Shown here piece by piece: positions 1,066-11,297 of a stretch of DNA of 11,583 nucleotides. Position 1 is the stretch's first letter, and the number at the start of each line of letters is the position of its first letter. The translations under genes and the position numbers were made by a program. This stretch comes from Puniceicoccales bacterium (GTDB lineage: Bacteria > Verrucomicrobiota > Verrucomicrobiia > Opitutales > JAIRLG01): the NCBI GenBank assembly GCA_031288595.1, contig JAITRB010000017.1:1-11583 (forward strand), in the 5' to 3' direction. Under the pieces are notes generated by a model. It worked only from the letters and a program-made list of their open reading frames with translations. It made no database searches and had not been told where the DNA came from.

Positions 1066-3084
1066 ATGAGGTTTATGGGTGATCCTGGTAGAGTAGGGGC
1101 TCCTTCGGCTGCTGTTCCAAGTGCCACAACGCAGTCCGTGCAGAGAAGCGTGGTCAGGCTGCTCGAGGACGTCGCCCGCGGCGCGAAGGTCTCGTCTCAT
1201 GGCGGCATGCCCAGTGTCGTGTCGCTGTCCTCCCTGGCGTTGGCGAAGCCGGGATCGCGCACCGAAGCCCTTCAGGCTGTCAACTCCCTTCTGCGGGAGA
1301 ATGGCGGTCCGAATCTCGGGCATTTGCTCGCCCAGCAAATCCCCAAGGATGGCCCCGATGCGCTGAAGCAGAGAGAACGGGCCGAGAGCGTCCTCCTGGG
1401 GACGTTGATCTCTTTGCCCCCTGCCGAGCGTGAGGCGGTGATGCAGGAGCAAAATCGCCTGCGGATTATCTGTAAAAACGCCATTTTCGGCTCGCTGGTC
1501 TCGAAGAACGACAGGATCTGCGCGATCTGCACCAGCAATGTGCAGAAATCTCCATCCTATCAGGGCATGTCGGCTCTTCCGCAAGAGATGCAAGCTGTGG
1601 CCAAGCAGGGTGCCCAACGGCTGGAGATGCTCATGGCCCGGGCGCCTGGCCTCAACGAGGCACAGAAGGAGGCCATTCGGAGCAAGGCGATGAATTTTTT
1701 CAAGGAGACAACCTGCAAGGATGCTGTGATGAGCTTCCCTTTGCCCTCCGCTTCCAGACCCACTGATCCGGCGAGGGCACGCCTCGGCGAGGAATGGACA
1801 GATATGCGCCATTTCGGCTATCTGCTAAAATTGCTCGGGAAGGAAATCTACGATCAGTTCGACATTCCGGATCAGCTCTACATGCAGCGTAGGGCCGATG
1901 GAATGGCTGATGGCGGCATGACGCTCAGGAGATGGTTGGAGCGGGGGCCAGGGGAAGGGGAGGCCTTCGGCATTCTCACGGATGTCGCCGGCGCGCCAGG
2001 GGAAGAGAACGCTTTGAATATTCCCGCAGATGCTGCCGGCGCGCCGCTCCCAGCTCCAGTAGGACCTCCACCGCCTCCACCGCCAGCTGCCGAACCGCCT
2101 CTGCCAGGAGGAGCAGCCGCCACGGCTCCTCCTACTGACACGCCAGCGCTGGCAGGAGACCTGGCAGCGGCACTGACTGCCGCGAAAGGGAGATTGAAGA
2201 GAGTTGATCTGCCTGTGGTGGGCGGGCAGCTCCATCAGCCCCAGTTGAACCCAGCTGCGGCGAAGGTGCGGGATGGAATAAATACTTTTTATAGGCAGCT
2301 GTCCCAGGGAGCCAACGCAGCGCCGGCAACAGACGCGGTCATCGCCCACCGAGAGACGCGGGATGCGCTCAGCCAACTCCTGCAATTCGCAGAAGGATTT
2401 TCGCTCGAGGGCTGCCCACCAGGCGAGGGGGGAGTGTTTACAGAAACACAGGGGGATCTGTTTCGCCTGCAGGCAGGGTGCTTGCAGGGACTTCTGGAAA
2501 ACGTCCGGGGGCGCGTGCCGTATTGTGATGAGGGTAGCGGCGAGGCGCAGCTGATGCGGGAGGTTTTGCGGCATGTCCAGGGATCCCTGGCCCCGCTTCT
2601 GAAACAGGTGGCGGAATTGAAAGGATCCGACGGAGAAGGGAAGGTTGCCGCCAACGCAAGAGCTGTGCAGCAACAAGGGCAAGGTCTCGCGAAGGCGATG
2701 GACACGTGCACCGGCTCGATCGATACCTTCATTTCCAAGGAGGCTGCGGCCAAAGCTAGAGCTGAAAAAGCAGTCGGCTTATTGAACAGAGCACAGCATG
2801 ACTTGGAAGGTGGTAACATAGAAGATGGAAAGAGGCGCATAATCGAGGATATAAAAAATGCGATTGAGGCGGATGAGGAACTGGCAGCGGTATTGGATCA
2901 GCTAGATTCGACCCTGAACCCATCGATACTCGAGCGATTGGGGGCATTGGATGAAGATTTTAAAAATTTTATGCAAGGACAGCTGGAGAGTCAGAGGAGA
3001 TTTGCCGATGATCCGAATAGGGCCAGGAACAGAGATGCAGAGGAATTGAGAAGGCTAGAGGAAGAGGGGCATGCATTCCATTGA
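1066..3084 (+). CDS. Large orphan protein, helical and Ala/Leu/Glu-rich, with a central polyproline tract and a WH2-like motif; candidate secreted effector-like protein
   Basis: The frame is open from TTG 1018 to TGA 3084 (688 codons). The first ATGs are at 1066 and 1075, and GAGG at 1068-1071 precedes 1075, so the start lies somewhere in 1018-1075. The amino-acid composition is protein-like, whereas overlapping antisense frames are Arg/Ser/Pro/Cys/Trp-rich. I see no signal peptide, no TM helix and no enzymatic motif. Confidence 0.8.
   Translation: MRFMGDPGRVGAPSAAVPSATTQSVQRSVVRLLEDVARGAKVSSHGGMPSVVSLSSLALAKPGSRTEALQAVNSLLRENGGPNLGHLLAQQIPKDGPDALKQRERAESVLLGTLISLPPAEREAVMQEQNRLRIICKNAIFGSLVSKNDRICAICTSNVQKSPSYQGMSALPQEMQAVAKQGAQRLEMLMARAPGLNEAQKEAIRSKAMNFFKETTCKDAVMSFPLPSASRPTDPARARLGEEWTDMRHFGYLLKLLGKEIYDQFDIPDQLYMQRRADGMADGGMTLRRWLERGPGEGEAFGILTDVAGAPGEENALNIPADAAGAPLPAPVGPPPPPPPAAEPPLPGGAAATAPPTDTPALAGDLAAALTAAKGRLKRVDLPVVGGQLHQPQLNPAAAKVRDGINTFYRQLSQGANAAPATDAVIAHRETRDALSQLLQFAEGFSLEGCPPGEGGVFTETQGDLFRLQAGCLQGLLENVRGRVPYCDEGSGEAQLMREVLRHVQGSLAPLLKQVAELKGSDGEGKVAANARAVQQQGQGLAKAMDTCTGSIDTFISKEAAAKARAEKAVGLLNRAQHDLEGGNIEDGKRRIIEDIKNAIEADEELAAVLDQLDSTLNPSILERLGALDEDFKNFMQGQLESQRRFADDPNRARNRDAEELRRLEEEGHAFH
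2041..2208 (+). other. Proline-rich (FH1-like) segment followed by a WH2-like actin-binding motif within the 1066-3084 CDS
   Basis: Nt 2041-2145 encode APLPAPVGPPPPPPPAAEPPLPGGAAATAPPTDTP, with seven consecutive Pro codons at 2065-2085. Nt 2146-2208 encode ALAGDLAAALTAAKGRLKRVD, an amphipathic helix followed by LKRV. Confidence 0.45.
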
Positions 3085-3290
3085 TAGACCGTCTCGAACC
3101 GGAAAACATTCGCATCGCCGGAGCCGATGGGAATGGCCATCGCGGGAATGGCAATGGCCTTTCGAGGAAAGGGAAAAGGAGTTTGGGCAAACGAGTGGAG
3201 ATGGGCTGTGGGGCTATTGCGAACACTTCCTCCTTTGCACTTGCCTTGGGTGCCGTAATGCTTAAACTAGAACCTATATGGGAGGTATGT

Positions 3291-5390
3291 ATGGTAGGAG
3301 GATCCACATCGTGGGTTGATACTGCGGGGGTCAGTGCTGCCGGAGGGCTGACTAGATCGGTGGCGACAACTAACCTTCAAAATGTGAAGCAGAATCCTGG
3401 AATGCCCGGTGTCGCCTCCAGGGCGAGCGGGCAGCCGAGTATTCCCGACTCTCAAGTCCTCAAGAATTCCCGAGGTGCAGCCCAAGCGGCCGGCAGTAGC
3501 TCTAGATCTAGAATACTGGCCGAGGCCTACCGGACATTTGACAGGACCTGCTCCAGTAATCTCGGGAAGATATACAGAGCGATGAAAGCAGGCGGAGAGG
3601 AGGGCAAGGCGCAAGTCAAGGAAGCCATAGGGGACTTCATATCGGCTGCGTCGAAAAATCCGGCCTATGCCGAGGTGTTTGCGGGGGTAGACGCAGGGCT
3701 GAGTCGAGACAATCCGGCGCCCGGGCAAATGCTGGATTCAGCACGCATGTGTATTTTCCTGGCCCGAAATCCCGATGTCGCAGAGGCCCTCAAGAGGGGC
3801 AATCCTAAGCTGGGCGAGCCAGTCGATTCAGCTGTGCAGAGGGGTTGGGAGAAGCTAACCCAAAGACTAGAAAATCCCAGGAACGGAAACGTCGCAGGTA
3901 AAAAGACCCTCGCCGAAAAAAGCGCGGTCGCCCAGCAACATCTGCAAAAGGCGATCAGCTCAAAATTGCAGCGTTTCGGGGCCAATCATGCTGCCAAGAC
4001 CGAAGTCCTAAAATTCGTGCGAGGAGCGGCCGGAGATCCCGTTAAGCTCCATGCCTTGAGTCAGCTTGCCCAAAGCAGTCCCAAGTACAGCTCGCTCATC
4101 GCCAGTGCTCTCGGTTCCGCCATGGGGGGAGCGAGCTGGATACGAGGTGCAGGCGATGCGATCGCGTTGTCCAAAAATGCGATGACGGCCTTTCTGTACC
4201 TCGGCAGGAGTGGCGCTTTATCCCCAAGCGACCAACAGGAGGTCGTGGCTAAACTCGGCGATGGCAAGCTCTCTAATGGTAAGAGTGTTTCCGCGACCCA
4301 CGCGCTCACAAATCCGCAATCTCCTTTCTGGCAGGCAACCCAAGAACTGTCTCTGGCGCAGCGCACGGAATTAGCCGATGCCATTGAGAACTCTCCGGAC
4401 TTTCAGGCGAAGAAAGATCGGTGTAATGATCTGGCTTCAGCACTGAATCGATCGGTCACAAGCCCGCCTCTGGCGAGCTTAAACGATGGCCTCAAGACGT
4501 TTGATGAGCATTGGGATCTTAGAGAAACCGGATTCGAAACGCCTTCGACCCCAGAGCATTTGAAAATGGATCCAGCCAAGTTTGCAAAACTGAAACAGGA
4601 CTGGAAGGGAGATGAATCGGCAGCTCAAAAGACGGTCGATACGGCAAGAGGGTGGGTGAAGAGCGCTCTGGCAGATTCGGGTGCCAGGCGTGAATTGAAT
4701 AAATGCAGAACTATGTCTGGTGAGCTGAAACAGCTGAAGGGGGAACTTTCTTCGCTCCGGGCAAGTATCATGACGGCTCACTGCGGTGCAACGAGCAGCG
4801 ATGCTTTAGATGCTAGTATGGGTGCCAATCTAGCATTTAAGGCTGCAGGTATCTCCAGCTATGCGGGCTTTGTGGATGTATGCCGTGAGAAGGGAGAGAG
4901 GCAGCATTCTGTGTCAGATCATGTCAGCTCGGCCATGAATATGCCGAGGAATGCAGCCGATAAACTGTCGAGCCTGGCCCGGTGCGCTGAAGAAGTTGAA
5001 GGTATTTGCCAATGGGCAAAGCCCATAGAAATAGCGGAGCAGAAACTGAATGATATCCGACCCAGTTTGGGGATACAGGGTGCGGATATTCCTCCAGAAG
5101 AAAAATTTGCCCCAGGAGGTCCCATGGCGTTGCAGTTTGGCCAGAGCAACATCAAGACTTTGCTGCTGGAGGCTATTGAATGTTCACTTTTGTCCGTGCC
5201 AGAGGAAAATCGGGCACAGATCAGGGAGGAGATACAAAAAATGGGTATGATGCCTCCCATGGACTATGTGAAGCTTTTGGGACGAGTGCAGCAAAATCCC
5301 TCCCAGTACAACTTAGGTGCCGATTTCCAGTTGCCGGACAGCGTCCTTCAGATCATGGAAGGAGCTAAGAAGATCGACAGCTATGCCTAG
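3291..5390 (+). CDS. Large orphan protein (699 aa from ATG 3291, or 769 aa if TTG 3081 is used) with no recognisable domain; candidate secreted effector or translocator-like protein
   Basis: The frame is uninterrupted from 3081 to 5390. ATG 3291 is preceded by GGAGG (3281-3285) with 5-nt spacing, the best ribosome-binding site in the window. The N-terminus MVGGSTSWVDTAGVSAAGGLTRSVATT... is Ser/Thr/Gly/Ala-rich. There is a Gly/Ala-rich hydrophobic stretch at nt 4086-4205 and a heptad-like ELKQLKGELSSLRASI at nt 4722-4769. Confidence 0.8.
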   Translation: MVGGSTSWVDTAGVSAAGGLTRSVATTNLQNVKQNPGMPGVASRASGQPSIPDSQVLKNSRGAAQAAGSSSRSRILAEAYRTFDRTCSSNLGKIYRAMKAGGEEGKAQVKEAIGDFISAASKNPAYAEVFAGVDAGLSRDNPAPGQMLDSARMCIFLARNPDVAEALKRGNPKLGEPVDSAVQRGWEKLTQRLENPRNGNVAGKKTLAEKSAVAQQHLQKAISSKLQRFGANHAAKTEVLKFVRGAAGDPVKLHALSQLAQSSPKYSSLIASALGSAMGGASWIRGAGDAIALSKNAMTAFLYLGRSGALSPSDQQEVVAKLGDGKLSNGKSVSATHALTNPQSPFWQATQELSLAQRTELADAIENSPDFQAKKDRCNDLASALNRSVTSPPLASLNDGLKTFDEHWDLRETGFETPSTPEHLKMDPAKFAKLKQDWKGDESAAQKTVDTARGWVKSALADSGARRELNKCRTMSGELKQLKGELSSLRASIMTAHCGATSSDALDASMGANLAFKAAGISSYAGFVDVCREKGERQHSVSDHVSSAMNMPRNAADKLSSLARCAEEVEGICQWAKPIEIAEQKLNDIRPSLGIQGADIPPEEKFAPGGPMALQFGQSNIKTLLLEAIECSLLSVPEENRAQIREEIQKMGMMPPMDYVKLLGRVQQNPSQYNLGADFQLPDSVLQIMEGAKKIDSYA

Positions 5391-5524
5391 AATTTTCCCG
5401 CCTGGTGGGGCAAAATTATCGAACAGCCCTACATTGAGTTAACGCCCCCCATCCGTTTTCCGCGAAAACCTTCCCCCTCCTTTTCCCCTTGCCAGTGGAG
5501 ATTTAAAGCTTCCATGGGCATTCC

Positions 5525-7129
5525 ATGAAGCAGATCTTCGTGACGGGAGGGGTAGTATCGTCATTGGGAAAGGGATTGACGGCGGGCGCGCTGGGGGCGC
5601 TGCTGGAGGGGCATGGCTTTCGGGTCGAGCTGAAGAAGTTCGATCCCTATTTGAACCTCGATCCGGGCACCATGAGCCCGCTGCAGCACGGCGAGGTCTA
5701 TGTGCTGGAGGATGGGACCGAGACCGATCTCGACCTGGGCCACTACGAGCGCTTCACGCATGCGGTGCTCGGCCGGAAGCATTCGCTCACCTCAGGCAGG
5801 ATCTACGAAAGCGTCCTGCAGAAGGAGCGGAGTGGGGAGTATCTGGGCCAGACCGTCCAGATCATCCCGCACGTGACCGATGCCATCAAGGAGCGGCTGC
5901 GGGCGGTGGATGAACAGGCCGATCTCTGCATCACCGAGATCGGGGGGACGATCGGCGACATCGAGAGCCTGCCCTTTCTGGAGGCGCTGCGGCAGTTCGC
6001 GCTGGAACAGGAGCGGGAAGATGTGATTTTCCTACACCTCACACTGCTGCCCTATCTGCGGGCGGCCGAGGAGCTCAAGACCAAGCCGACGCAGCAGAGC
6101 GTCGCAAAACTGCGGGAGATCGGCATCCAGCCGGACATCCTGGTCTGCCGCACGGAGCGGGAAATTTCGCCCGATGTGCGGAGGAAAATCAGCCTGTTCT
6201 GCAATGTCTCGCCGCGGGCGGTCGTCGAGGAGCGCGATCTGCAGGATTCGATCTATGAATTGCCCTCCGTGCTCCATCGGGAACAGCTCGACGCGCTGGT
6301 ATTGGAACGGCTGGACCTGCGCCCGCGACGGGCCTACGAAGACATTTGGTCAGGCATCCTGCGGAGGATTCGGGAGCCCTGCTGCCACAGCCGCATCGGG
6401 CTGGTGGGGAAATACGTCAGCTGCAAGGATGCCTACAAATCGGTCTATGAGGCACTGGCCCACGCCGGTATCGCCCTCTCTTGTCGGGTGGAAATACGGG
6501 TCATTGACGCCGAGGCCTTGGAATCTCCCGGGGCCGCGGAGCTCTTGAAGGACCTCGACGGGATTCTCGTGCCCGGAGGCTTCGGTACCCGCGGAATCGA
6601 GGGCAAGATCTTCGCTGCGGATTGGGCTCGGGAACGGGGCATTCCTTACCTTGGCCTCTGCCTGGGCATGCAGCTGGCCGCCATCGCCTTTGCCCGTCGG
6701 GTGCTGGGCTGGCCTGATGCTCACAGCGTGGAGTTCGATCCCCAGAGCGCGCATCCGGTTATCCGCCGCCTGGATTCCCAACGGGAAACGGCATCGCTGG
6801 GAGCGACGATGCGCCTCGGATCCAGGACCTGCCTCCTAAAAACAGGCAGCTTGGCCCATCGCCTCTACGGGGAGGAGGAAATTTTCGAGCGCCATCGGCA
6901 CCGCTACGAGTTCAATCGGGAGATGGAAGAGGCCTTTGAATCTCAGGGCATGCTCATTTCCGGCCGCTGTCCCGACGACGGCGCTGTGGAAATTCTAGAA
7001 TTCCCACAGCACCTGTACTACCTAGCGGTCCAGTTTCATCCGGAGTTCCAATCCAAACCCTGGCAGGCTCATCCGCTCTTCCTCGGCTTCCTCCAGGCTG
7101 CACTGGATCGGGCACGGGATCATGCATGA
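5525..7129 (+). CDS. pyrG: CTP synthase (glutamine-hydrolysing)
   Basis: The 534-aa product starts MKQIFVTGGVVSSLGKG. It contains DPYLNLDPGTMSP and GEVYVLEDGTETDLDLGHYERF. The C-terminal glutamine amidotransferase domain has LVPGGFGTRGIEGKI, the YLGLCLGMQ nucleophile Cys, and HRHRYEFN. Length is typical for the family. Confidence 0.97.
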   Translation: MKQIFVTGGVVSSLGKGLTAGALGALLEGHGFRVELKKFDPYLNLDPGTMSPLQHGEVYVLEDGTETDLDLGHYERFTHAVLGRKHSLTSGRIYESVLQKERSGEYLGQTVQIIPHVTDAIKERLRAVDEQADLCITEIGGTIGDIESLPFLEALRQFALEQEREDVIFLHLTLLPYLRAAEELKTKPTQQSVAKLREIGIQPDILVCRTEREISPDVRRKISLFCNVSPRAVVEERDLQDSIYELPSVLHREQLDALVLERLDLRPRRAYEDIWSGILRRIREPCCHSRIGLVGKYVSCKDAYKSVYEALAHAGIALSCRVEIRVIDAEALESPGAAELLKDLDGILVPGGFGTRGIEGKIFAADWARERGIPYLGLCLGMQLAAIAFARRVLGWPDAHSVEFDPQSAHPVIRRLDSQRETASLGATMRLGSRTCLLKTGSLAHRLYGEEEIFERHRHRYEFNREMEEAFESQGMLISGRCPDDGAVEILEFPQHLYYLAVQFHPEFQSKPWQAHPLFLGFLQAALDRARDHA

Positions 7130-7266
7130 CTTACGGATACACTGGCAGAAAGATGCCCGTTGGTTCGAGTATGGCCAATGGGCCTCGCTTCTCTTGTGCG
7201 GCAAAGCCTTTTGAGGAAATTGCTGAAAACGCTGCCGAAATCATTGAGGACGTCGCCGATTTTTGA
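7126..7266 (+). CDS. Hypothetical 46-aa small ORF between pyrG and asd
   Basis: Hand translation gives MTYGYTGRKMPVGSSMANGPRFSCAAKPFEEIAENAAEIIEDVADF. Its ATG (7126-7128) overlaps the pyrG stop TGA (7127-7129) as ATGA. Its TGA (7264-7266) overlaps TTG 7263 of the long asd frame as TTGA. I recognise no homology and it could be chance. Confidence 0.2.
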   Translation: MTYGYTGRKMPVGSSMANGPRFSCAAKPFEEIAENAAEIIEDVADF

Positions 7267-7313
7267 AAATCTTCGGACTTTTCAGATGGGGGCGAAACGC
7301 TAGCACCTGGGAG

Positions 7314-8372
7314 ATGCGATCCGCCACCATCGGTGTCATTGGGGCCAGTGGCCTTGTGGGGCAGGAGATCCTCGGCTGGCTCCAGCGCTTCCGCTACCCA
7401 TTGGAATCCGTTCGGGCATTGGCCTCGGAGCGCTCAGCCGGCCGGCGGCTATCCATAGGCTCTTGGGACTGGGAGGTCGAGGCGCTGACAGAGGAGCGGC
7501 TGGAGGGACTCGACCTGGCCCTCTTCGCGACGGAAGCCGAGGTCAGCCGGCACTGGATCCCTGTCGCCCATCGGCACGGCGTCCGCTGCATCGACAGCAG
7601 CTCCGCCTTCCGCCAAGATCCGTCGGTGCCGCTGCTCATCCCCGAGATCAATGGGGAACAGCTGGCCTCCCATCCGTCCCTCGTGGCCAGTCCCAATTGC
7701 TCGGCCACCCTCGCGCTGCTGGCCCTTGCCCCGTTGCACCGTGCTTTTGGCCTGAAAAGTTTCTCGGCCTGCACCTACCAGGCAGTGTCCGGTGTCGGGA
7801 GGGATGGCCTACGGGCGCTGGCTCAGGAGCGGGCAAATTCTGAAAAGTTTTCGGAAATCTTTTCCGACCGGATCGAGCAGAATATCCTCGCCACCATAGG
7901 GGAAATCCAGCCGAACGGTTTTGCGGCGGAAGAGGAGAAAATGGTCCATGAGAGCCGGAAAATTCTCGACCTTCCGGAACTTGGCGTCGTAGCCACCTGC
8001 GTGCGCGTACCGGTGGAACGGGCTCATTCGCTCGCGATTCAGGCACACTTTGCAGAGCCCGTCGACCTGGCAGCGGCCGAAGATGCGCTGCGCCATGCCA
8101 AGAGCCTGCGCTATACCCCTGAATGGCTCCCAACTCCTCTCCGCTGCGCCCGCAACGAGGACTGCTATGTCTCCCGCCTACGGCTCGTCCCGCCAAGGGC
8201 TGGCGATCACGACGAAACTCAGGTCATCGATAGCCATGATCTCCTCCTCTGGGTCGTCGGCGACCAGCTCTGGTCCGGCGCCGCCCTCAACGTCGTCCGC
8301 TTGGTAAATCTCCTCCTGCGGGACTGCTTCCCTCACAATCTCAATTCCAGTCCTCTGAAACTGCAAATTTGA
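7314..8372 (+). CDS. asd: Aspartate-semialdehyde dehydrogenase
   Basis: The product has the Rossmann motif IGVIGASGLVGQE directly after ATG 7314, the active-site motif SPNCSAT, YQAVSGVGRDG, RVPVERAHSLAI (catalytic His) and the C-terminal LWVVGDQLWSGAALN. The open frame extends to TTG 7263, but that would add an atypical 17-aa N-terminal extension. Confidence 0.93.
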   Translation: MRSATIGVIGASGLVGQEILGWLQRFRYPLESVRALASERSAGRRLSIGSWDWEVEALTEERLEGLDLALFATEAEVSRHWIPVAHRHGVRCIDSSSAFRQDPSVPLLIPEINGEQLASHPSLVASPNCSATLALLALAPLHRAFGLKSFSACTYQAVSGVGRDGLRALAQERANSEKFSEIFSDRIEQNILATIGEIQPNGFAAEEEKMVHESRKILDLPELGVVATCVRVPVERAHSLAIQAHFAEPVDLAAAEDALRHAKSLRYTPEWLPTPLRCARNEDCYVSRLRLVPPRAGDHDETQVIDSHDLLLWVVGDQLWSGAALNVVRLVNLLLRDCFPHNLNSSPLKLQI

Positions 8373-8460
8373 GGGGTTAATCCTACTGATCTTGTTTTGG
8401 GGATATCTTTTCCGAGAAAAGCTTGCCCTTCTTCGCCCTAATAGACTTTCCTGCAGAGCC

Positions 8461-8485
8461 CCTCTCAGCTGAGAGGCTTTTATTT
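8461..8485 (+). terminator. Rho-independent terminator downstream of asd
   Basis: The perfect palindrome CCTCTC (8461-8466), AGCT loop and GAGAGG (8471-8476) is followed by CTTTTATTT (8477-8485). It lies 89 nt after the asd stop codon. Confidence 0.6.
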
Positions 8486-9011
8486 GGATGCTGCTCTGAA
8501 TGCTTCCGTCCTGCTTCCCTTGGCTTTGAACTAGGCCTTAGTGCTTCCTAGGGGATGAGCTCTTGATTTAAAATGAAAATGATCGATCTCGGGTCTGTTT
8601 AGATTACCTGGACGCTGAAGTCATCGAAATCGAACCCAAAAACTGGGCTTGGATTCTCCTGATTCTGTCGGTGCTTGAGCTGGGTTTCCTCTGGGAAAGA
8701 GCTGTCCTCATTTCTGGAATGATGGATATTGGGAATCTTCCCCAAATCGAGGATGAGCGAGGAGGCCTGCTCGTGTTAAGAACCGGAATGCCTGGAGGCA
8801 TTTGCCACGTATGTACGCCGTTGTCTGCTTCGTGAAGGGGGCGTTCTTGAAGGTACTGGTTCAGAGCGGATCTCAAGAGGGCAGCTCATGCTCTGTCTCT
8901 CCGGGAGCTAGGTGATTCTGTGAGATAAGACCGGAGGAACTATTCCTCCCGTGTTCTTGTGTTTCGTGTGGGGAATTGAGAGGGAGCGATCTGGCTTGAT
9001 GGTGGGCGTCC

Positions 9012-9338
9012 GTGATTTCTCTTCTTGGTACAGAACTATCCTATCTAGACCACGCTGCTCTGCTTGTGGATTTCCTTGAAAGATTGGGTGGAAAAATAGA
9101 GCACCGGGATCCGGGGGAAGAAAATCGCCGGGATCGTAGCTCTCCGGTTCGAGATGAGGCCATCAAGGATCTCGTGAATGCGTCGGCGATGGCCAAAATG
9201 AGGGCATTCGGAGCTCCTGTTTCAGGAATGAAAAGAGGTGTATGGGTCGACGCGACGGAGTTTGCGCAAGACTATACCCCCCTTTTCTTTCGACGCAGAG
9301 ATGGTTTTGTTCTCTGCAGCGGAACCTTTCCCTGCTAG
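9012..9338 (+). CDS. Hypothetical protein (108 aa, GTG start), doubtful
   Basis: This is the only ORF of 60 codons or more in the 8880-9430 gap. Its composition is protein-like (ELSYLDHAALLVDFLERLGGKIEH...). It has no RBS and no recognisable motif, and it converges on the 621-aa gene. Confidence 0.25.
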   Translation: MISLLGTELSYLDHAALLVDFLERLGGKIEHRDPGEENRRDRSSPVRDEAIKDLVNASAMAKMRAFGAPVSGMKRGVWVDATEFAQDYTPLFFRRRDGFVLCSGTFPC

Positions 9339-9431
9339 AGCTTAGGCCGCTATTCCCACAGCTCTTTGGCTGAAAGCAGGGGCTGTTCCTGGAGTTCGGA
9401 TAGAGAGCGCTCAGAAAATGTTGCCTGCCTC

Positions 9432-11297
9432 TTAGTGGCCCATGAGGGCATGGAGCTCCATGAAAGGGTTTTTCGGCTTTGGCCGTTCGTTGCCATGCCT
9501 GTTTTCCCAGGCGGCGTGCATGGCCGCGACAAGCTCGGGGAGCGTTATATTGGCTGCGCTGTGGGATTGGACACTATCCATATCGCCTATATCGAACTTG
9601 TTTTCCAAAAGGATGTGCAGCGTTACAATAGCCGTCACCTCCGAGTCCCATGGTCTTTGGTCGCTATATTGCTTGCAATACTGCATGCATTTGCCCATTA
9701 CGACCGAGAAGAATGAACAGCTCACATCGTGATTGTCCGTTCCGGCGATGGGGCAGTTATTCGGTGAGGCGATCCAGATTCTGTCATCCGCGCCATTGCC
9801 AGTGTGCGTATGGACCTTCTTCAGACAAAATCCAGACGGTAGTGGGGCTGTGAAATGAGAAGTCCCCTGCTCGTTTGCGTTGTTCGCAAATTGCGCTCCA
9901 TAGAGCCGCATCGCGAAAAGCCCGCACACAAGGTCTTTTGCGCCACGTTGACAGGGCATGTTGGCCACTGCATAATGGGGCCGGAGGCAGTGAATCTTCT
10001 GTTCCCCTGGCATGTAGGGTTGAATGTTAACCTGGAAGCGTAATCTGGCAAATGGGGCATTGGGGTTGAAGAGAAGGTCTTGAAGGGCCTGCGGCAGTGC
10101 TTGGGTATTGAAGCGCGATTGGCAATATTTTTTCAATTCATTTCCTTTGGCACGCTGGTCCCAAACTAGATTGGCCAAGAGCGGCAAGAGCGACGCGGAC
10201 ATTGCATGGAAACGAGTATAGGCGTGGGCGTAAACTGCCTCTTGAAACAAGAAGCTTCCGTATAGCTGGGAAGGCCTAAGCTCTAGATCTGAGAAAAATT
10301 TTTTATTCGAGGCCTTGGCTTGCAATGCTCTCCTCGGCTGTTCCTCTCTTGGGCTTGGCGAGGGTCGTTCCACCGTGGCCGGTGATAGGAGCGTCAGGAG
10401 GGAATCCGTAGCGCTTGCCAGGGCTGTGAAATGCTCCGATGACGTGGTCCCCTCTCTTCTGTCGAGGGCAGGGCGATTGCTCTTTTGGGCGCACTCTGCT
10501 TTCAGCGCCCGTAGCTTACCCGGGATCACCGTTTGCAGCAACGTCCTCTGTGCGTCGGATGCATTGAGTTTCTGGCCAGGCTTGGGGGCGTAGTAGAGAC
10601 AGAGGATGGAGCCGTAACTTCCCGCGCCGATGTACGGACCCTGGACGCTGAGGGCAAAGACCCGAGAGTCGTTGGATTTGAGACGAATTTTCCTCAAATC
10701 TGCCGAACTGTTCCTGCGTCGCAAGATCCAGCCGTTTGGCAGGGAGCGATACCGGGTGCCCGGCATATCGTCCCAGGGACATTCCCATTCAGCAGCGCCG
10801 TAGAGCTTGACCGCGAACATTGCCTCCTGTCCCACACCTCCCAGGGAGGGGAAAGGAAAAATCAGCTCTGCCTGATCCGATTCGGTGATGAAAATCTGTA
10901 GGCCGTAGTGGGAATAGGGCAATTGGAAATCTCTCCCGGAGCACCGAAAATCGTTCAGAGGATTGCCTTGGGGAAAGGGAATGCGGGCAAAATCCTCTGT
11001 CCAGGCTTTGACGACGTCATTCCTTTCGGCCTTTTTATGCCGATAATGCACCTCTGTCCAGTGGGCCTCAAAAACAGGGAGATTGCTGTTTGAGCTCAGT
11101 CCAACGTGCCAGTCTTCCACGGTCTGGCGGCTCGGTGCTCGATGGATGTCCGTCACTTCCGGTTTGAAGTGGATCCATGTCTCACGCTCATTTGTCCGGA
11201 AGGCCCGGGACAGACCAAAGGTGTCGAAGTCAGCCAGGCAGAGACTCGTGGCCTGCCAGGCCATCGGGATTAGGAAGAGGTACGTTGAGCGCTTCAT
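9432..11297 (-). CDS. Secreted orphan protein (621 aa) with a Sec signal peptide, two domains and a Cys-rich C-terminal half
   Basis: It starts at ATG 11297. The N-terminus MKRSTYLFLIPMAWQATSLCLA/DFD has a basic n-region, a hydrophobic core and a small-residue cleavage site (nt 11232-11297). A low-complexity Ser/Pro/Arg linker covers about residues 265-333 (nt about 10299-10505). The last 230 residues contain nine Cys. I recognise no catalytic motif. Confidence 0.85.
   Translation of the reverse strand: MKRSTYLFLIPMAWQATSLCLADFDTFGLSRAFRTNERETWIHFKPEVTDIHRAPSRQTVEDWHVGLSSNSNLPVFEAHWTEVHYRHKKAERNDVVKAWTEDFARIPFPQGNPLNDFRCSGRDFQLPYSHYGLQIFITESDQAELIFPFPSLGGVGQEAMFAVKLYGAAEWECPWDDMPGTRYRSLPNGWILRRRNSSADLRKIRLKSNDSRVFALSVQGPYIGAGSYGSILCLYYAPKPGQKLNASDAQRTLLQTVIPGKLRALKAECAQKSNRPALDRREGTTSSEHFTALASATDSLLTLLSPATVERPSPSPREEQPRRALQAKASNKKFFSDLELRPSQLYGSFLFQEAVYAHAYTRFHAMSASLLPLLANLVWDQRAKGNELKKYCQSRFNTQALPQALQDLLFNPNAPFARLRFQVNIQPYMPGEQKIHCLRPHYAVANMPCQRGAKDLVCGLFAMRLYGAQFANNANEQGTSHFTAPLPSGFCLKKVHTHTGNGADDRIWIASPNNCPIAGTDNHDVSCSFFSVVMGKCMQYCKQYSDQRPWDSEVTAIVTLHILLENKFDIGDMDSVQSHSAANITLPELVAAMHAAWENRHGNERPKPKNPFMELHALMGH
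9453..9530. repeat. Copy A of an imperfect direct repeat (3' end of the 621-aa gene)
   Basis: GAGCTCCATGAAAGGGTTTTTCGGCTTTGGCCGTTCGT (9453-9490) aligns with 11365-11401. A second shared block, CAGGCGGCGTG at 9508-9518, aligns with CAGGCGCCGTG at 11419-11429 at nearly the same offset (27 versus 28 nt). Confidence 0.7.

Follow-up and report, generated by a model that had tools for sequence, protein, structure and literature searches.

The question raised by this locus is what two large orphan genes, lodged between a rhomboid protease gene and pyrG, encode, and whether their products act on a host. The genes lie on an 11,583-nt stretch of Puniceicoccales DNA (assembly GCA_031288595.1, contig JAITRB010000017.1), referred to below as the window; coordinates are those of the whole stretch, with position 1 as its first letter. 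A preliminary description, made from the letters alone, had placed two consecutive plus-strand open reading frames (ORFs) between these neighbors and proposed that they form a secreted host-interaction module. Both ORFs are present at the coordinates given there (with alternative starts, 1018/1066..3084 and 3081/3291..5390, both on the + strand) and are termed here ORF1 (1075 to 3084; 669 aa from the ATG at 1075, or 672 aa from an alternative ATG at 1066) and ORF2 (3291 to 5390; 699 aa). They are flanked by a divergent rhomboid-family protease gene (230 to 871, - strand; Pfam Rhomboid, E = 1.5e-20) and by pyrG, a conserved downstream neighbor (5525 to 7129, + strand; NCBIfam CTP synthase, E = 2.9e-232), with asd next after pyrG. 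ORF1 and ORF2 represent two previously undescribed protein families, both restricted to metagenome-assembled genomes (MAGs) from one small clade of the Puniceicoccales (Opitutales in GTDB).

A collection of 5.8 billion clustered proteins contained five representatives of the ORF1 family and three of the ORF2 family. Using a hidden Markov model (HMM) built from the ORF1 alignment, an exhaustive search of 1.84 billion representatives returned nine proteins: seven were the family and its fragments, one was a distant relative (P0012/P0014, E = 1.3e-4), and one was a probable low-complexity match. Every attributable match came from Puniceicoccales MAGs. The distant relative (LBJ81_03045; L005, 1893 to 3545), from another Puniceicoccales MAG, shares 24% identity and keeps the S.PP..R…D..CA.C core; it has a C-terminal Pro-rich tract (19% Pro, with PPPP), and its neighbors are an orphan, a TPR protein, clpX, and secA, with no ORF2 homolog nearby. 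No family for either protein was found in Pfam, NCBIfam, PADLOC, or PHROGs. When all family members were scanned at E ≤ 10, only subthreshold noise was obtained, together with a recurrence of UBQLN1 and Ddi2_HDD; the noise in PADLOC and PHROGs comprised ZorA on the long helices (PADLOC, E = 0.049) and PHROGs matches with E above 0.2. Sequence and profile searches of the PDB retrieved nothing for ORF1 and, for ORF2, only BiP and designed helical proteins at E > 0.2. Foldseek comparison of the predicted models with the PDB and BFVD gave nothing significant, ORF2 matching generic solenoids with a TM score of ≤0.16; remote homology to a cytoplasmic housekeeping family, on which the host-interaction proposal was to fall, was found in neither the profile nor the Foldseek searches. 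Relatives were likewise missing from scans of metagenome contigs with both alignments, in a collection evidently without these termite samples, and no relatives of the pair were found by tblastn on 72,556 plasmids. The earlier wording, a family not yet described, was borne out: family libraries, the PDB, and the 1.84 billion representatives yielded no detectable relative outside the clade, and the phyletic map comprises a handful of Puniceicoccales MAGs only.

Homologs of the two genes are adjacent in four further loci (L002, L003, L006, and L007) from different genomes or samples, the ORF2 homolog lying directly downstream of the ORF1 homolog in each. Against the closest relative, L003, the ratio of nonsynonymous to synonymous substitution rates (dN/dS) was 0.41 for ORF1 and 0.47 for ORF2, compared with 0.34 for the rhomboid gene as a control from the same genome pair. 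Against L002, amino acid identity was 38% for ORF1, 34% for ORF2, and 71% for pyrG (for which dN/dS was 0.09); synonymous sites were saturated (proportion of synonymous differences, pS, about 0.8), and the nonsynonymous-to-synonymous ratio of such proportions (pN/pS) was <1 in every 100-codon block. Both genes are fast-evolving but selected coding sequences; conservation as coding sequence, on which the earlier proposal had been made to depend, was observed as purifying selection and as frames intact in five loci. The order rhomboid (-), ORF1, ORF2, pyrG was found in the window, L003, and L006, and in L007 as far as the contig extends, with the rhomboid gene adjoining the pair in all four; in L002, a 692-aa orphan gene takes the place of the rhomboid gene upstream of the pair. 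Because gene order recurs across loci, the pair is of old standing and has been passed on vertically; it is no mobile island.

In public databases, both genes are called too short at the 5' end, P0001 (ORF1) being annotated as 644 aa from a GTG and P0006 (ORF2; LBT57_03245 in NCBI, from a MAG labeled "Puniceicoccales bacterium") as 602 aa from the ATG at 3582. As GAGG stands 5' of the ATG at 1075 and homologs open with MGDPG or MSDPG, the true start of ORF1 is most likely ATG 1075, while ATG 3291 of ORF2 lies 6 nt downstream of GGAGG. Homologs and Shine-Dalgarno sites support the longer proteins with disordered N termini, and in this the preliminary description improved on the database calls, its ORF1 start being refined to ATG 1075. 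Upstream of ORF2 (3241 to 3285, + strand), a promoter-like TTGCCT-16 nt-TAAACT (3241 to 3268) precedes the putative Shine-Dalgarno sequence GGAGG (3281 to 3285). The TTGC and TAAA[AC]T cores are kept in the ORF1-ORF2 spacers of five loci, and the spacer is 72% identical to that of L003 with no common reading frame; ORF2 may have its own promoter, sigma-70-like in appearance. A structured RNA in this conserved spacer was ruled out (z = 0.43), and neither an Rfam family nor a tRNA was found in the window.

The N-terminal domain of ORF1 (approximately residues 17 to 292; 1123 to 1950, + strand), helical with a small beta-sheet and modeled by AlphaFold2 (AF2) with a predicted local distance difference test (pLDDT) score of about 80, shows the strongest conservation within the family. 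Its signature, S[LM]PP..R … A.F.S..S..D..CA.C … FP … LL, is kept even in the 24%-identical P0014, and the CxxC within S..S..D..CA.C (CAIC, C149/C152; 1519 to 1530, + strand) is invariant in eight of eight aligned members, P0014 included. The ORF1 homolog in L006 (P0009, 2526 to 3413; 295 aa) consists of the N-domain alone, with a double stop at its end, and for this reason the N-domain appears to be the functional core of ORF1. It is followed by a hypervariable, disordered linker (1948 to 2241, + strand; pLDDT about 30) with 21% Pro, compared with 4.7% in the rest of the protein. Linker length ranges from 35 to 268 aa across homologs, the linkers cannot be aligned between members, and pN/pS climbs there to 0.65 to 0.72. 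Proline makes up 15 to 27% of the residues in six linkers out of seven and 9% in that of P0004, whereas it accounts for about 5% of the remaining protein. Because the enrichment persists (15 to 23%) in genomes of 47 to 48% GC content, with Ser and Thr replacing Ala and Gly in L002, a GC artifact was ruled out. Within the linker, PPPPPPP (2065 to 2085) and PPLPGG (2095 to 2112) form poly-Pro tracts on the + strand (2065 to 2112), and runs of at least four prolines occur in four of the seven linker-bearing members scored, with four tracts in L003. The sole conserved island of the linker, L-[KRT]-[KR]-[VT], sits at its junction with the C-terminal domain (2227 to 3081, + strand), a moderately conserved long-helix domain in the AF2 model that starts QLHQPQL, contains CDEGSGEAQLMR, and is absent in L006. 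The L003 homolog (4744 to 6813) has a linker of 214 aa with 27% Pro, its four poly-Pro tracts, and two helix-plus-basic repeats, and its C terminus is aberrant and lacks the tail module described below, which could reflect a frameshift, an assembly error, or decay.

ORF2 is all-helical in its AF2 model, with an overall pLDDT of 54.7 and moderate confidence only for residues ~210 to 490. Its first ~70 aa (3291 to 3500, + strand) form a disordered, acid-poor N terminus rich in Gly, Ser, Thr, and Ala (pLDDT below 50), in which GVSA..GLTRS is conserved with L003. A Gly/Ala-rich helical hairpin follows (4086 to 4205, + strand; helix 264 to 278, loop, helix 290 to 306), with the core ALGSAMGGASW at 4107 to 4139; ALGSAMGGA.W, at the turn of the hairpin, is identical in five of five full-length ORF2 homologs and is the most conserved block of the protein. 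Farther on, a short, conserved heptad-like segment, ELKQLKGELSSLRASI (4722 to 4769, + strand), of about two to three heptads only, lies inside helix 463 to 494, where E485 and R490 do not vary. The amphipathic helix at the C terminus (DFQLPDSVLQIMEGAKKIDSYA; 5322 to 5387, + strand; helix 683 to 698) is conserved in L002, L007, and P0007.

Several statements made about both proteins from the letters alone agree with these models. That the N termini are rich in Ser, Thr, Ala, Gly, and Pro and nearly acid-free was matched by composition (53% of these residues and one Asp or Glu in the first 30 aa of ORF1; 58% and one in the first 50 aa of ORF2) and by predicted disorder, and the description of both proteins as long and helical was matched by AF2, which models both as helical with disordered N termini. 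A signal peptide and a transmembrane (TM) helix had been reported as lacking: the maximum 19-residue Kyte-Doolittle hydropathy is 1.01 in ORF1 and 0.96 in ORF2 (at YSSLIASALGSAMGGASWI; 0.79 to 0.97 in ORF2 homologs), against 2.02 in the rhomboid control, and thus TM-grade segments and h-regions of the Sec type are absent from both ORFs. The central and heptad peptides of ORF2 singled out previously translate exactly from nt 4086 to 4205 and 4722 to 4769, but the hydrophobicity ascribed to the former, at 0.96, is far below TM grade. Similar Gly-rich starts occur in several signal-less orphans (MGDGSVGGLGG, MDGLGGADRG, MANLGGVSGNSG, MSVGGVGGNAG, MVGGSTSW, and MGDPGRVG), drawn from L003 2528 to 2980 (- strand) and the N termini of ORF1, ORF2, and P0014; they could be a common N-terminal signal or merely a common composition.

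The two proteins appear to have a module of ~65 aa in common, located in the tail of ORF1 (2869 to 3000, + strand), where it is diverged in the window protein, and in ORF2 (3612 to 3815, + strand; …KNPAYAEVFAGVD…FLARNPDVAEALKRGNPKLG). Profile-profile comparison with hhalign matched the ORF1 tail to ORF2 residues 108 to 175 (E = 7e-4, probability 26%). When an HMM from ORF1 tails alone was run against 487 six-frame segments, it ranked the ORF2 homologs from L007 (E = 1.3e-4) and from L003 (E = 1e-3) highest among nonself matches; it did not retrieve the copy in the ORF2 of the window (E = 6.8). A joint alignment of the module, which also covers the ORF2 copy, is coherent: …[DN]P.[LFY]A..[LF]A..D … L[LIQ].[KL]…[SQ]PEF..F[LV]..NP.[VI]..A[LF]. 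Taken on these profile comparisons, we regard the relationship as real but modest. For the module (…FLARNPxVAEALKxGNPxL…, …QPEFKxFVxxNPxIKAAF…), the nearest known domains may be the helical hairpins with an "NP" motif, of the STI1/ubiquilin (PF23195) and Ddi2-HDD (PF24669) type, that occur in ubiquitin-shuttle proteins of eukaryotes. Subthreshold Pfam matches were obtained to UBQLN1 (E = 0.02 to 0.064, three proteins) and Ddi2_HDD (E = 0.0022), at 13 to 18 bits against cutoffs of 27 to 33. The Ddi2_HDD match and a UBQLN1 match (E = 0.05) fall on the L003 segment equivalent to the ORF2 module; in all, two of the three UBQLN1 matches lie on the module, and the third maps to the N-domain of ORF1, where there is a comparable NP motif. 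All of these matches score under the Pfam cutoffs, and the likeness is uncorroborated by a profile search of the PDB, in which no ubiquilin/STI1-type structure was retrieved, and its putative ubiquilin/STI1 affinity is unproven. The L006 ORF2 homolog (558 aa) also lacks the module; since the L006 homologs lack them, the linker, the C-domain, and the module are dispensable.

What the proteins do has to be considered against the lineage that carries them. Related loci come from the MAGs Ct408_bin121 and Pcl387_bin38. The sample table of Mies and Brune (mBio 2024, PMC11257099) assigns Ct408 to Calcaritermes temnocephalus and Pcl387 to Procryptotermes leewardensis, two flagellate-bearing lower termites, and that study treats the termite-gut Opitutales families LL51 and UBA9783 as established or putative protist endosymbionts; their genomes are small and encode nucleotide transporters of the NTT type, and the endonuclear "Ca. 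Nucleococcus" is one of the group. Nuclear and cytoplasmic endosymbionts make up the "Nucleococcus cluster" (PMC8204192). A literature search found no description of secretion systems or effectors for termite-gut Opitutales. Because related copies sit in MAGs of a putative termite-flagellate endosymbiont lineage, the host-interaction half of the preliminary description is plausible; its other half, a translocator role, was not supported (see below).

We tentatively favor, as a possibility somewhat short of even, the reading that both proteins are host-interface proteins of new families that act without Sec, with export, a host target, and a common partner all predicted. Several traits would be effector-like, namely, disordered acid-poor N termini, fast divergence, modular gain and loss of domains, GC-independent linker proline, and a helix plus LKRV in a WH2-like position. 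ORF1 and ORF2 are large, soluble, mostly alpha-helical proteins that would be exported without a Sec signal and do not resemble pore-forming translocators. The CxxC-bearing N-domain of ORF1 would be its core functional unit, and the linker with L-[KRT]-[KR]-[VT] could serve as a flexible stretch on which host partners of the proline-recognition or actin type dock; ORF2 would be a helical scaffold with a disordered N terminus and an invariant Gly/Ala hairpin, and through the ~65-aa module the two might bind a common partner or each other. Lineage-specific, vertically inherited effectors of the Chlamydiae, obligate intracellular bacteria within the Planctomycetes-Verrucomicrobia-Chlamydiae group, offer a parallel, being likewise orphans with disordered N termini, scattered among housekeeping genes in stable synteny, fast-evolving, and restricted to one host-associated clade, and the genes neighboring ORF1 and ORF2 carry ubiquitin-system-like motifs. 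Ubiquitination-related gene families have reportedly expanded in the Chlamydiae. In the Chlamydiae, a type III secretion system (T3SS) is documented, whereas no secretion system was seen in the contigs read here (~60 kb), and ORF1 and ORF2 have no homology to any chlamydial effector.

A number of observations weigh against a host-interface role. No secretion-system gene, sct gene, chaperone, or other export machinery was found in the ~60 kb of contigs read; a T3SS ATPase candidate on L002 was identified as F-type atpA. The disordered, Ser/Thr-rich, acid-poor N terminus without a Sec signal, present in both proteins, is a necessary but unspecific effector feature. The pair sits in a fixed, collinear housekeeping neighborhood, and ORF2 has an apparently ordinary sigma-70-like promoter; the L006 homolog has neither linker nor C-domain, so these cannot be needed for the core function. 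Foldseek searches against the PDB and BFVD gave no effector-like or other significant fold, ORF2 being modeled with a pLDDT of only 54.7. The WH2-like element discussed below does not extend to the whole family, goes unrecognized by Pfam, and scores no better than chance against VASP. Finally, the placement of the window's MAG in the endosymbiotic families (LL51/UBA9783) is an inference.

Nearly as likely as a host-interface role, at somewhat better than one chance in three, is that both proteins are cytoplasmic, with a lineage-specific structural, regulatory, or redox function in which the CxxC N-domain would be the core and the linker a mere spacer. The lack of a signal peptide or TM segment, the fixed position among rhomboid/pyrG-type housekeeping genes in all loci, the strongly conserved N-domain with its invariant CxxC, the dispensability of linker and C-domain in L006, the sigma-70-like promoter 5' of ORF2, and the lack of secretion genes in the contigs read would all fit such a function. 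It is less easily reconciled with the absence of the family from all other bacteria searched, free-living relatives included, with a divergence as fast as that of a neighboring Sec-secreted orphan family (34 to 38% identity, against 71% for pyrG), and with long disordered acid-poor N termini and a GC-independent Pro-rich linker, which are unusual for housekeeping proteins.

A much more specific version of the host-interface reading, which we consider doubtful, would make the pair the first recognized host-targeting effectors of verrucomicrobial termite-flagellate endosymbionts (relatives of the intranuclear "Candidatus Nucleococcus"); they would leave by an export route new to this lineage, the ORF1 linker would engage host proline-recognition or actin machinery, and a eukaryote-like ubiquilin/STI1-type module would dock both proteins to one host or chaperone partner in common.

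Bacterial actin effectors such as Vibrio VopL/VopF, Burkholderia BimA, Chlamydia TARP, and Rickettsia Sca2/RickA combine Pro-rich and WH2 modules and, with eukaryotic Ena/VASP, are the known systems to which ORF1 comes closest in layout. A second sub-case of the host-interface reading, an unlikely one, is that ORF1 manipulates host actin in the style of VopL/VopF, BimA, and TARP, the poly-Pro tracts recruiting profilin-actin, the helix plus LKRV binding G-actin, and the C-domain oligomerizing. The poly-Pro tract (2065 to 2085) and the helix plus LKRV (2155 to 2205) are present as the preliminary description had them: the WH2-like element, GDLAAALTAAKGRLKRV (2155 to 2205, + strand), is modeled as a lone low-confidence helix (residues 366 to 376) abutting LKRV (377 to 380, in the 672-residue numbering). 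By the published definition, WH2 is a helix of 9 to 10 residues with LKK(T/V) directly after it, and binding to actin depends mostly on the helix (PMC7407642); the window protein has this form, with an 11-residue helix in a Pro-free run of 16 residues with three Leu and, ~25 to 40 residues upstream, the P7 and PPLP tracts. Identical helix-motif spacing is kept in P0005 (L…L..AK..L.K[VT]), and L-[KRT]-[KR]-[VT] is the only conserved island of the linker. The layout parallels the VASP GAB reference peptide, confirmed as PDB 2PBD chain V (APPLPAA…GLAAAIAGAKLRKV), where poly-Pro likewise precedes GAB; in ORF1, poly-Pro is followed by a short helix plus LKRV and then by a helical C-terminal domain. 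The bacterium that carries ORF1 is related to MAGs of a eukaryote-associated lineage.

Against this stands the rest of the family. Of the eight members, the window protein and P0005 are the only two to have helix plus motif: P0002, P0003, and P0004 have V.LRKV with prolines before it, at the position of the helix, the L003 homolog, P0014, and P0009 lack the motif, and in L006 the whole region is missing. The Pfam WH2 model (PF02205) matched neither the full proteins at E ≤ 1 nor any of eight isolated linker segments at E ≤ 10, nor any family member at E ≤ 10. Local alignment to the VASP GAB peptide scored 29, a value reached by 250 of 1,000 composition-preserving shuffles, and the tetrapeptide alone arises in 9% of shuffles. 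Unlike known actin effectors, ORF1 has a single motif in place of tandem WH2 repeats, and the named effectors have no counterpart to its large conserved CxxC N-domain. The WH2-like motif claimed earlier thus has canonical form in the window protein, but since Pfam misses it, it occurs in two of eight members, and a quarter of shuffles reach its VASP score, the actin idea stands as a lead, not a finding.

The rhomboid neighbor suggests a further reading, to which we assign very little weight, in which ORF2 is tied to the divergent protease and its invariant small-residue helix (IASALGSAMGGASW) is a membrane-associating segment that is recognized or cleaved. The rhomboid gene is the immediate neighbor in four of five loci, and the hairpin, the only fully invariant ORF2 block, is rich in small, helix-destabilizing residues of the kind that rhomboid substrates typically carry. 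The segment is nonetheless not a TM helix (hydropathy 0.96), the pair is kept without the rhomboid in L002, and with gene order conserved throughout the region, two genes may be neighbors without being linked in function. The protease itself is a generic family member: it scored 29.2 bits against the rhombosortase model TIGR03902 (cutoff, 84), and a rhombosortase/GlyGly-CTERM system was not found, with no C-terminal TM segment in ORF1 or ORF2.

Slightly weaker still, and highly improbable, is that the pair are T3SS translocators of the SipB/SipC, IpaB/IpaC, or YopB/YopD kind, with the ORF2 hairpin inserting in the host membrane, an analogy (SipC/IpaC/YopD) that the preliminary description had drawn. 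The likeness lies in a tandem of genes whose large, helical products have no Sec signal and in the conserved small-residue hairpin, short heptad segment, and conserved C-terminal amphipathic helix of ORF2. Minor translocators are about half the size of ORF1 and ORF2. The reading is already contradicted on three defining features: no translocator family matched in Pfam (E ≤ 1, nor E ≤ 10 across members) or NCBIfam, the hydropathy maximum of 0.96 is far below TM grade, and no small TPR class II chaperone gene adjoins the pair in five loci, where the upstream neighbor is the rhomboid or the 692-aa orphan gene and the downstream neighbor is pyrG. To these are added the lack of T3SS genes in the contigs read, the lack of relatives on the 72,556 plasmids searched, and fold matches limited to generic solenoids. 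That the ORFs are artifacts or decaying pseudogenes of a degenerating symbiont genome, to which the shortened database calls, the fairly high dN/dS, and the aberrant C terminus of the L003 ORF1 copy might point, is ruled out by the conservation data, with frames of ~670 and ~700 codons open in five loci despite a pS of about 0.8, pN/pS <1 in each block, strongly conserved motif blocks, and a Shine-Dalgarno sequence at a start backed by homologs, and its probability is negligible.

Beyond the pair, the window carries a 621-aa orphan gene (9432 to 11297, - strand) with a Sec-type signal peptide, whose full-length homolog is the gene directly upstream of the ORF1 homolog in L002 (E = 2e-82). It belongs to a modular family, with further members in L002 at 7809 to 9887 (+ strand), 17595 to 19730 (- strand), and 19953 to 22139 (- strand), having a common ~200-aa N-domain (KLYGA.W.CPWDD.PG…LP.G[YW].LR) and variable C-domains. 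Two L002 paralogs end in an OTU-like VAGDG[SN]CGFWA…NHYKAI; an OTU assignment was rejected, with only a weak Pfam otubain match (E = 0.0059) and no PDB sequence match. The family is a weak hint of a secreted repertoire built from modules and perhaps directed at ubiquitin, which would be in keeping with life in association with eukaryotes and with the host-interface reading. Elsewhere, the asd ORF as listed (7263 to 8372) has a TTG start and ~17 extra N-terminal residues relative to the L002 orthologue, and the real start is probably the ATG at about 7314, giving MRSATIGVIGASG. The window lacks ispD, which in L002 separates pyrG from asd. In the ~1 kb past asd (8373 to 9431), no ORF is convincing, none of the other loci is similar, and GC content is lower (0.51 to 0.53).

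Were the proteins cytoplasmic, they would still constitute two new families without detectable relatives among 1.84 billion representatives, and the wider significance would be modest. Very little is known of how the bacteria that live inside termite-gut flagellates interact with these hosts. Because the pair is conserved and clade-specific and its domain map is defined, it provides a concrete candidate with which such interaction can be approached, as well as a marker of the symbiont clade.

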